Shown: one piece after another, positions 1 through 1,007 of the stretch
Numbering within the stretch: position 1 is the stretch's first letter
How the letters are laid out: each line of letters begins with the position of its first letter
Assembly (NCBI GenBank): GCA_021798855.1
Contig: JAJZBP010000002.1
Coordinates: 1 to 25,861, forward strand
DNA from: Bacillota bacterium
GTDB taxonomy: Bacteria > Bacillota > Sulfobacillia > JAJZIM01 > JAJZBP01
Length of the DNA stretch: 25,861 bases
Direction of reading: 5' to 3'
The notes under the pieces: generated by a model
What the model saw: only the letters and a program-made list of their open reading frames with translations
The model's database searches: none
What the model was told of the DNA's origin: nothing
Position numbers and translations under genes: made by a program

Positions 1-59
1 AAAAAAAAAAAATATAAAAAATATAATAAATTTAAAGAAGGCGATGAGAGGAGGTGAAA

Positions 60-191
60 ATGATGCCGAAGGCAAGCCGGAAAGTCACTCTGGGGGGAGG
101 GCTGGGCATTTGGGGGACGGGCTTTGCGTTGGGGGCGGCGATCATCCTGGGGGTGATCAGGCTGATCATGGGGCCGGGGGGGTTCGTATAG
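60..191 (+). CDS. 43-aa Gly-rich hydrophobic microprotein (paralog A), unknown function
   Basis: Not in the ORF track (<60 aa). SD AGGAGGTG at 49-56, ATG at 60, TAG at 189-191. Translates to MMPKASRKVTLGGGLGIWGTGFALGAAIILGVIRLIMGPGGFV. 17/24 identical, ungapped, to 405..521 over residues 8-31. Followed by a terminator. Confidence 0.8.
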   Translation: MMPKASRKVTLGGGLGIWGTGFALGAAIILGVIRLIMGPGGFV

Positions 192-213
192 AAAAATGAA
201 TGGGGTGGACGGC

Positions 214-244
214 AAAGGCGGGGATAACCTCCCTCGCCTTTTTA
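214..244 (+). terminator. Intrinsic terminator after microprotein A, possibly bidirectional
   Basis: AAAGGCG-GGGA / TCCC-T-CGCCTTT stem with a 5-nt loop, then a T-run. An A-run on the 5' side would give a U-tail on the minus strand. Confidence 0.7.
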
Positions 245-404
245 TATGTTATAAAGTAAATAAACAATAAATCGTTTAAAATTAACATTAAATTAAAATA
301 GATACAAAGAAATTTTCAATAACCCCTTGTTAATTCGAATAAAAAAGACTACAATTGTTTCAAGTGAGCAATGATAAAAGATTAACGCAAAGGGGGTGGA
401 AAAG

Positions 405-521
405 GTGGAGAAATACACGCCTCCTAAGATGAGCTTGGGCGGTGGTTTGGGGGTTTGGGGCACCTTGGCGGCCTTGGGAGTGGCGGTTATCCTTGGACTA
501 TTGAAGGTTGTGGGACTGTAA
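405..521 (+). CDS. 38-aa Gly-rich hydrophobic microprotein (paralog B), unknown function
   Basis: SD AGGGGGTG at 391-398, GTG at 405, TAA at 519-521. Translates to MEKYTPPKMSLGGGLGVWGTLAALGVAVILGLLKVVGL. Paralog of 60..191 with mostly synonymous codon differences at identical residues. Confidence 0.8.
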   Translation: MEKYTPPKMSLGGGLGVWGTLAALGVAVILGLLKVVGL

Positions 522-540
522 CGCCATTTTTGGGATGCCG

Positions 541-569
541 ACTCGCGGGCCGTTTGCCCGCGAGTTTTT
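541..569 (+). terminator. Intrinsic terminator after microprotein B
   Basis: Perfect 10-bp stem ACTCGCGGGC / GCCCGCGAGT with a 5-nt loop, ending in a run of 5 T. Confidence 0.8.
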
Positions 570-752: not shown

Positions 753-1007
753 TTGAAGGAATACATTTGGAAGCGCGTTTTGGATGTGGGCCGGCACATT
801 GTGGACACCAAGGGGACGGTGAGGGACACGGCGCGGGGATTTGGGGTCAGTAAGAGCACGGTACATAAGGACGTGACGGAGCGACTGCCGAAGATCAATC
901 CGCAACTGGCGGGCGAGGTTCAAAACGTGCTCCAATATAATAAAGCCGAAAGGCATATCAGGGGGGGGGAAGCGACCAGGAAAAAATTCGAGGAAAGGAG
1001 TAGTTGA
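753..1007 (+). CDS. spoIIID: Stage III sporulation transcriptional regulator SpoIIID
   Basis: Signature TVRDTARGFGVSKSTVHKDVTERLPKINPQLA...YNKAERHIRGGEAT. TTG start at 753 after SD GAGAGGGGT is preferred over the track's ATG at 720. Confidence 0.97.
   Translation: MKEYIWKRVLDVGRHIVDTKGTVRDTARGFGVSKSTVHKDVTERLPKINPQLAGEVQNVLQYNKAERHIRGGEATRKKFEERSS

Follow-up and report, generated by a model that had tools for sequence, protein, structure and literature searches.

What are the two very short, glycine-rich open reading frames (ORFs) at the left edge of a 25,861-nt contig of an uncultured Bacillota bacterium, and does their position just ahead of spoIIID say anything about what they do? We analyzed this contig (GenBank assembly GCA_021798855.1, JAJZBP010000002.1, positions 1 to 25,861 of the forward strand), hereafter the window, as a follow-up to an earlier note that had been made from its letters alone. 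The alignments and gene signals identify the two, ORF1 and ORF2, as real paralogous genes. Together with two further copies in the same genome they form what is, by sequence comparison, a new family inside the familiar class of bacterial single-transmembrane (TM) microproteins. We consider it moderately probable that the four paralogs (38–45 residues) are stand-alone, single-pass membrane microproteins with a cytoplasmic N-terminus (N-in), and that they act by helix–helix packing through a stripe of small residues.

Two short genes with their own expression signals

The features of the locus on which the argument draws are the following.

60–191, plus strand: ORF1, ATG start, 43 aa; basic N-terminus, predicted 23-residue Gly/Ala-rich hydrophobic helix, Arg34, tail ending GPGGFV
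405–521, plus strand: ORF2, GTG start, 38 aa; paralog of ORF1 with identical architecture, Lys35 past the predicted helix
49–56, plus strand: ORF1 Shine–Dalgarno site, AGGAGGTG, 3 nt ahead of the ATG at 60, read from the sequence
392–398, plus strand: ORF2 Shine–Dalgarno site, GGGGGTG, 6 nt ahead of the GTG at 405, read from the sequence
214–241, plus strand: ORF1 intrinsic terminator, 10-pair stem followed by a T-run, fold energy −17.3 kcal/mol
540–566, plus strand: ORF2 intrinsic terminator, 11-pair stem with 8 GC pairs and a T-run, −26.7 kcal/mol, z −4.9
242–390, plus strand: AT-rich spacer, about 20–25% GC against 62% for the genome, holding the sigma-70-like promoter of ORF2
327–355, plus strand: ORF2 promoter-like site, TTGTTA-17-TACAAT, sigma-70-like (promoter scan)
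753–1007, plus strand: spoIIID (PF12116), context only, outside the peptide family

The earlier note had described two paralogous ORFs here, each with a strong Shine–Dalgarno site and a terminator of its own, and this description holds. In both genes the hairpin and its T-run begin 18–22 nt past the stop codon, and an alternative ORF2 start at the GTG at 396, which would give 41 aa, has no Shine–Dalgarno site. BLASTP aligns the two products without gaps over 29 residues, 17 of them identical and 26 positive (E 5e-11), with all 17 identities in a 24-residue core. Our alignment recovers exactly the set of 17 invariant residues that had been listed before, and a recount of the codons returned the same figure as well, with 13 of the 17 shared residues encoded by different synonymous codons. 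Identity at codon positions 1, 2 and 3 is 18, 24 and 9 of 29, respectively. Gene callers had predicted ORF1 in three public assemblies and left ORF2 uncalled in other assemblies.

A family of four paralogs in one genome

A six-frame search of the whole genome to which the window belongs (2.15 Mb in 312 contigs, 84% complete, 62% GC) located two further copies, for a total of four paralogs. They retrieve one another at E 1e-7 to 3e-5 genome-wide, so their similarity is well beyond chance, and a degenerate signature built from the invariant residues matches exactly these four places in the genome and no others. The earlier suggestion that more copies may lie to the left of the window was borne out by the third, upstream copy, which sits after rplJ–rplL on contig C275. 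The reverse complement of this contig ends in 126 bases identical to window positions 11–136, and we conclude from this identity that C275 directly adjoins the window. An independent public assembly (ENA ERZ27236962, contig k141_504916) carries the whole interval unbroken in the order rpmG, secE, nusG, rplK, rplA, rplJ, rplL, upstream copy, ORF1, ORF2, spoIIID, mbl, flgF/G, fabZ, metK, with three copies forming a tandem array flanked by rplL and spoIIID. The fourth, a dispersed copy of 40 aa, lies on contig C273, convergent with bzaE. The other two public assemblies with this locus share at least 99.5% identity with the window and represent the same organism.

All four copies share the same gene layout. 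A GGAGGTG or GGGGGTG string precedes each start codon by 3–6 nt, and a sense-oriented terminator hairpin follows each stop codon at a distance of 18–30 nt. The family range of 38–45 aa counts the upstream copy as 45 aa, in a frame with one G fewer than assembled (see below). As the copies occupy three unrelated settings (after rplL, before spoIIID and convergent with bzaE), these genes seem to be autonomous and to have no conserved partner.

The assembled upstream copy (L078:6001–6216) is 71 aa long. Past the shared ...RLIMGPGG string it enters a G8-A-G9 tract, runs through its own terminator hairpin and ends about 30 nt past the T-run. With one G fewer it would be 45 aa and end in ...GGVV (compare ...GGFV in ORF1), and, as with the other copies, the terminator would follow some 30 nt later. 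A third assembly, GCA_027330865.1, breaks exactly at this tract, in a contig end of 24 G, which makes a homopolymer error the simplest and most likely reading; alternatively, the frameshift or a slippage-prone tract may be real. At the left end of the window, positions 1–10 are a run of A, with which the other two assemblies and contig C275 disagree at three positions, and this looks like a contig-end artifact.

Two observations concern the wider neighborhood of the array. In this genome rplL is followed by the peptide array and spoIIID–mbl (L078:5454–7272) instead of rpoB–rpoC, with rpoB found on other contigs (C67 and C164), so that the usual rplJL–rpoBC linkage is broken. Additionally, a phage-type integrase gene and a tRNA gene (L078:336–1562 and 2275–2348) lie just upstream of rpmG–secE–nusG and may mark the edge of an integrated element.

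Selection acts on the peptide

The pattern of substitutions is that of coding sequence. Across all six pairs of copies, identity in the 29-codon core is 21–26 of 29 at position 2, 14–18 of 29 at position 1 and 9–15 of 29 at position 3. The proportion of synonymous differences (pS, 0.44–0.78) is at or near saturation and in every pair exceeds that of nonsynonymous differences (pN, 0.27–0.39), in agreement with the old duplication under purifying selection on the protein that had been proposed from the first two copies. The replacements themselves are conservative (I/V, L/M, K/R). Between copies, the flanks (200 nt upstream and 120 nt downstream) have no meaningful similarity, as the upstream sides give only AT-rich, low-complexity matches and the downstream sides none. 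A conserved peptide between unconserved flanks argues for selection on the peptide and not on an RNA element or a regulatory site; a small RNA hidden in conserved flanks was likewise rejected, the flanks not being conserved. Codon by codon, then, the comparison indicates that the peptide itself is under purifying selection.

That the frame is not protein-coding, the ORFs being chance products of GC-rich DNA, shadows of opposite-strand genes or the leader peptides of attenuators, we regard as highly improbable. The wobble-aligned antisense frame, it is true, is free of stops in every one of the four copies as well and keeps 44% identity, and a terminator stands close behind each ORF as it does in leader-peptide attenuators. 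However, the sense frame is the best of the six, with 52% identity and a BLOSUM62 score of 2.73 per site against 2.09 for the antisense frame, and only in the sense frame do we find a Shine–Dalgarno site, a start codon, a promoter-like site and correctly oriented terminators. The conservative replacements, with pN well below pS, also speak against this explanation. For attenuation in particular, what follows the fourth-copy terminator is the 3′ end of a convergent gene, what follows the ORF1 terminator is the new promoter-like site of ORF2, and a regulated gene downstream of the terminator is not present at every copy; we rejected a leader-peptide attenuator on this last ground. The antisense frame itself (window 32–169, minus strand, in the same register in the other three copies) encodes a Pro-rich peptide without a Shine–Dalgarno site or terminator, and we take its openness to be a by-product of GGN/NTN codon usage.

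A predicted membrane helix with a small-residue face

In the alignment of the four sequences, the N-terminal 8–10 residues are variable and basic, with two or three Lys/Arg, and are the least conserved part of the peptide. An uncharged hydrophobic stretch follows (residues 11–33), then a conserved Arg or Lys at position 34 and a short hydrophobic tail, which reads LIMGPGGFV, VVGL or IIIGH past the charged residue. The net charge is +2 to +4, and the greater positive charge of the N-terminus weakly suggests an N-in orientation. Eleven columns are invariant: G13, L15, G16, G19, T20, L24, G25, A27, I29, G31 and G38.

AlphaFold2, run on the four-row alignment, predicts a single helix spanning residues 11–37 with a mean predicted local distance difference test (pLDDT) score of 73 that rises to about 90 at the center. 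The earlier description of Gly-rich membrane microproteins is supported, as genes for predicted single-helix peptides that are unannotated or under-annotated. When the residues are placed on a helical wheel, G12/G13, G16, G19/T20, position 23, A27, G31, R34 and G38 fall inside one 140-degree arc. In the modeled helix, this stripe of small residues on one face is a glycine-zipper or small-xxx-small surface, of the kind used by transmembrane helices for tight packing. Transmembrane glycine-zipper packing motifs were reportedly described by Kim et al. in PNAS in 2005.

No detectable relatives outside the host species

The earlier note had recognized no family, and the searches we ran of family libraries, proteins and DNA gave the same answer. 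Profile searches of Pfam, NCBIfam, PHROGs, PADLOC and PDB returned no relative (best E 0.24), and in the ESM Atlas the best value was 0.86 and the only named cluster, DUF4027, came at 0.84, both under a meaningful level. A word-indexed protein search and a profile search of 1.84 billion representatives returned only the two called proteins of the species itself, plus one low-complexity protein of 508 aa. Two of the four copies have no entry in a set of roughly 15 billion predicted proteins.

As gene callers skip such ORFs, DNA was searched too. We ran six-frame profile searches on 210 genomes from the class and on 400 from the phylum; beyond the own genome every match had E >0.01, and most of these matches lay within long ORFs. 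A six-frame search of 40 relatives with one peptide returned no relative; the best single-query match, in genome G037, proved on reading to be a chance WGTGYA string and was rejected. The degenerate signature that picks out the four own copies, 56 nt long, had no match in 185,579 species genomes or in IMG/VR, and motif scans of JGI metagenomes returned no relative. In the collection, no second genome stands for this family or genus and the order has just one more, and the apparent orphan status of the peptides is unsurprising for that reason. So far, and as judged by these searches, the family is found in one uncultured spore-forming species only.

Position before spoIIID and the question of sporulation

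The gene downstream of ORF2 is spoIIID (PF12116, E 1.8e-39; TIGR02844 above its cut-off), which is followed by an MreB/Mbl gene. The mechanical maximum of the spoIIID frame is 95 aa from an ATG at 720; the Pfam match begins at residue 13 of this frame, and the product called in two other assemblies has 84 aa. The probable start codon is the TTG at 753, which follows GAGAGGGG and gives 84 aa, rather than the ATG. Around 711–719, a CATATAGAT string resembles a sigma-E −10 element.

This position had been taken as a hint that the peptides belong to sporulation, and in the corresponding explanation they would be membrane microproteins specific to sporulation and functionally linked to spoIIID, whether as factors of the mother-cell or forespore membrane or as an upstream ORF like usd. 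Several points favor it: ORF2 lies directly upstream of spoIIID–mbl; in Bacillus subtilis the small gene usd, upstream of spoIIID, is required for spoIIID translation (PMC4474612); and several sporulation factors are tiny membrane peptides (PMC10730256). We nevertheless consider it improbable, as the evidence from the locus, from relatives and from the other copies points the other way.

At the locus, about 230 nt and the −26.7 kcal/mol terminator separate the ORF2 stop (521) from the spoIIID start (753, or 720). B. subtilis usd is on the same sigma-E transcript as spoIIID (PMC4474612 and its reference 29). With a terminator and some 230 nt intervening, translational coupling of the usd type is impossible here, and a usd-type upstream ORF was rejected by the measure of a shared transcript and adjacency to the ribosome-binding site. 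Work from 1997 is said to have found that usd acts by being translated next to the spoIIID ribosome-binding site.

Among relatives, spoIIID was matched in 29 of 30 genomes and could be located in 26, where its loci were extended by about 1.5 kb on either side. Up to about 1.3 kb ahead of spoIIID could be read in these 26, and none of them has an ORF there that is comparable to the Gly-rich TM ORFs of the window, so the synteny that had been suggested as a check has no counterpart in the readable upstream regions. In one relative (G009, L052), a stop-to-stop ORF of 50 aa lies about 340–490 nt upstream of spoIIID; its sequence is unrelated to the window peptides, and its C-terminal 25 residues (MQVTISIPVVVVLVVALAYVYVKNR) would make a small hydrophobic ORF if an internal ATG starts translation.

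As for the other copies, only one of the four adjoins a sporulation gene, two have non-sporulation settings, and the promoter-like sites are of the sigma-70 type. Such sites stand ahead of three of the four copies. Besides the ORF2 site listed above, ORF1 is preceded, shortly beyond the left edge of the window, by two overlapping sites, TTGCCT-16-TAGAAT and TTGCAT-17-TATAAT, and the fourth copy has TTGTAA-17-TAATAT, which matches 8 of 12 positions and lies under the scanner threshold; no clear promoter-like site was seen ahead of the upstream copy. The sites sit in spacers of 19–30% GC in a genome of 62% GC. They are consensus matches only, a point that leaves the sporulation explanation some room, but they point to a housekeeping rather than a sporulation sigma factor.

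Type I toxins

A second explanation is that the peptides are type I toxins, membrane-damaging peptides whose translation is repressed by unrecognized antisense or divergent small RNAs, with the copies being duplicated modules. We regard this as unlikely, though it has the most to be said for it among the named classes of tiny proteins considered here. The criteria of Fozo et al. 2010 for such toxins include a length below 70 aa, a TM stretch, tandem repeats in one intergenic region and a polar, charged or aromatic cluster at the C-terminus (PMC2887945). Our peptides are 38–45 aa long with a predicted TM segment, they are repeated in tandem in one intergenic region with an additional dispersed copy, and they are stand-alone, lineage-restricted genes without a partner protein. 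Furthermore, the AT-rich spacer ahead of ORF1 carries two sigma-70-like sites on the opposite strand, which are directed convergently into the 3′ end of the upstream copy. Such convergent geometry is that of the toxin–antitoxin pairs RatA/txpA and SR4/bsrG.

Against this, the C-termini (...GPGGFV, ...VVGL and ...IIIGH) are hydrophobic and carry no polar, charged or aromatic cluster. All four genes have strong Shine–Dalgarno sites. The ORF1 leader is AT-rich and so likely little structured, whereas in type I toxin mRNAs these sites are typically occluded; folding of the ORF2 mRNA leader gave no clear sequestration of its Shine–Dalgarno site and points neither way. The DNA around the opposite-strand sites is AT-rich, and chance matches to the consensus are to be expected there. 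We found no terminator on the opposite strand and no opposite-strand promoter-like site near ORF2 or downstream of ORF1, and the sites close to the fourth copy are directed away from that copy. Searches against Rfam gave no match. Finally, similarity between the copies is confined to the coding region, whereas it extends beyond the coding region in zorO/zorP (PMC2887945).

Exported peptides

The earlier note had also raised a leaderless two-peptide bacteriocin, and we weighed more broadly whether the peptides could be exported, as a leaderless or two-peptide bacteriocin, the precursor of a ribosomally synthesized and post-translationally modified peptide (RiPP) or a short hydrophobic pheromone. 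The peptides are small, carry a charge of +2 to +4 and are Gly/Ala-rich with GxxxG-like spacing as in class IIb bacteriocins; they are tandem paralogs, as are the bacteriocin peptides enterocin L50A/B; and two radical SAM genes adjoin the fourth copy. However, each peptide gene has its own terminator and does not share an operon with the next. Among the neighbors that are annotated or listed with Pfam hits (rplJ/rplL, spoIIID, mbl, flgF/G, fabZ and metK, with the bza genes on the other contig), no gene for an ABC exporter, a C39 peptidase, immunity or an Rgg/RRNPP receptor was seen.

The peptides themselves also fit export poorly. The consensus of double-glycine leaders has acidic and hydrophobic positions, both of which are absent from the 10–12 basic, poorly conserved residues before the first GG. 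The N-terminal 10 residues are basic, short and least conserved, which is the opposite of a double-glycine or RiPP leader, and the uninterrupted 23-residue hydrophobic stretch, predicted as a helix, is unlike the amphipathic, cationic leaderless bacteriocins. The two-peptide bacteriocin is thus disfavored by the separate terminators, the missing double-glycine leader and the lack of an exporter or immunity gene among these neighbors, and we judge export in any of these forms to be distinctly improbable.

For the RiPP version, the radical SAM genes are convergent with the peptide gene and are part of the bza operon, not a maturase set, and a RiPP with a radical SAM maturase was rejected on these grounds. 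On the minus strand of contig C273 (L076:472–8190), the cluster encodes ThiC-like, CobS and CobT proteins, an O-methyltransferase fused to DUF2284 and two B12-binding radical SAM proteins. We take it to be an anaerobic benzimidazole (bza) operon for the cobamide lower ligand, in which the ThiC-like protein is presumably HBI synthase. This bza cluster looks complete, and no cobalamin riboswitch was seen in the stretch of C273 examined around it.

A possible mode of action

The mechanism that we propose as the most likely for stand-alone membrane microproteins is the following. Each gene would be its own transcription unit, composed of an AT-rich upstream region, a Shine–Dalgarno site, a short ORF and an intrinsic terminator. 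The short basic N-terminus of the product would stay in the cytoplasm, and one helix of about 23–27 residues would insert into the cytoplasmic membrane. There the stripe may pack helices together, forming homo-oligomers, hetero-oligomers of the paralogs or complexes with a larger membrane protein, and any physiological role would presumably be exerted through such contacts.

Several points weigh against this proposal. The host is an uncultured metagenome-assembled genome. Positive charges occur at both ends of the predicted helix, so the topology is weakly predicted. The AlphaFold2 model is a monomer built from four sequences, and a hydrophobic 40-mer is usually modeled as a helix anyway; invariant G25 sits off the stripe, and the Gly-rich first third (residues 11–20) may be flexible rather than helical. 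Multi-copy, tandem, stand-alone TM peptides are also a type I toxin hallmark. In addition, ORF1 in GCA_027330865.1 (DAHWCA010000105.1; L079:221–331), the assembly that also breaks at the G8-A-G9 tract, has a 29-nt deletion between two GGGGGT repeats, which yields a product of 36 aa that keeps the helix stretch and ends in ...ILGVRIEK. This deletion could be either an assembly collapse or a natural allele, and taken with the terminator read-through of the upstream copy it raises the concern that some copies may be decaying.

A related proposal, which we find doubtful, is that these are new lineage-specific glycine-zipper peptides that oligomerize into ion-leak pores. They would be type I toxin-like or modulate the membrane potential, the paralogs perhaps forming mixed pores and the G8-A-G9 tract perhaps serving as a slippage switch that changes the C-terminus of the upstream copy.

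Small membrane proteins are routinely missed by annotation, and a four-copy family under purifying selection in one deep-branching lineage of spore-formers is a clean example of taxonomically restricted microproteins. The analysis also corrects the tempting step from a position before spoIIID to a role in sporulation. The practical value of the family is limited by its uncultured host and the lack of orthologs for comparison.

Comparison with known systems

Five known systems invite comparison. The tiny YjcZ/SscA TM proteins (TIGR01732) are, like ours, Gly-containing single-TM peptides of about 40 aa from spore-forming Bacillota, often in several copies. The earlier note had called this likeness superficial, observing that the characteristic hydrophobic core is absent from the window peptides, and we agree. 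The family model (cut-off 21.35 bits) fails on both the peptides and the genome: the peptides have no NCBIfam match at E up to 10, and a six-frame search of the genome with the model gave none at E up to 10. The GlsB/YeaQ/YmgE stress proteins (PF04226) resemble ours as Gly-rich small membrane proteins with I-x-LG and PG-x-GG-like strings, but GlsB-type proteins are about twice as long and have two or three helices. Here too the peptides have no Pfam match at E up to 10, and the sole match in the genome (E 0.7) is on another contig.

The usd gene of B. subtilis, which we compared by description only, shares with ORF2 the form and position of a small ORF just upstream of spoIIID–mbl. It differs in that ORF2 is set apart from spoIIID by a terminator and about 230 nt and that the peptide family has members at unrelated loci as well. 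The type I toxins Ibs, Ldr/Fst and ZorO/ZorP (PMC2887945) share more features with our family, being below 70 aa, with one TM helix, encoded by tandem and dispersed stand-alone genes of narrow range and often missed by gene callers. They have no sequence similarity to our peptides, which have hydrophobic C-termini, strong Shine–Dalgarno sites and similarity confined to the ORF.

A further correspondence is with the glycine-zipper or small-xxx-small class, in which invariant Gly, Ala or Thr residues stand 3–4 residues apart on one face of the helix, as do G16, G19/T20, position 23, A27 and G31 here. This class is a motif class and not a homologous family, and with Ala, Cys or Ile at position 23 the zipper of our peptides is imperfect. 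If the peptides do form pores or modulate a membrane complex, they would constitute a new sequence class among glycine-zipper peptides.

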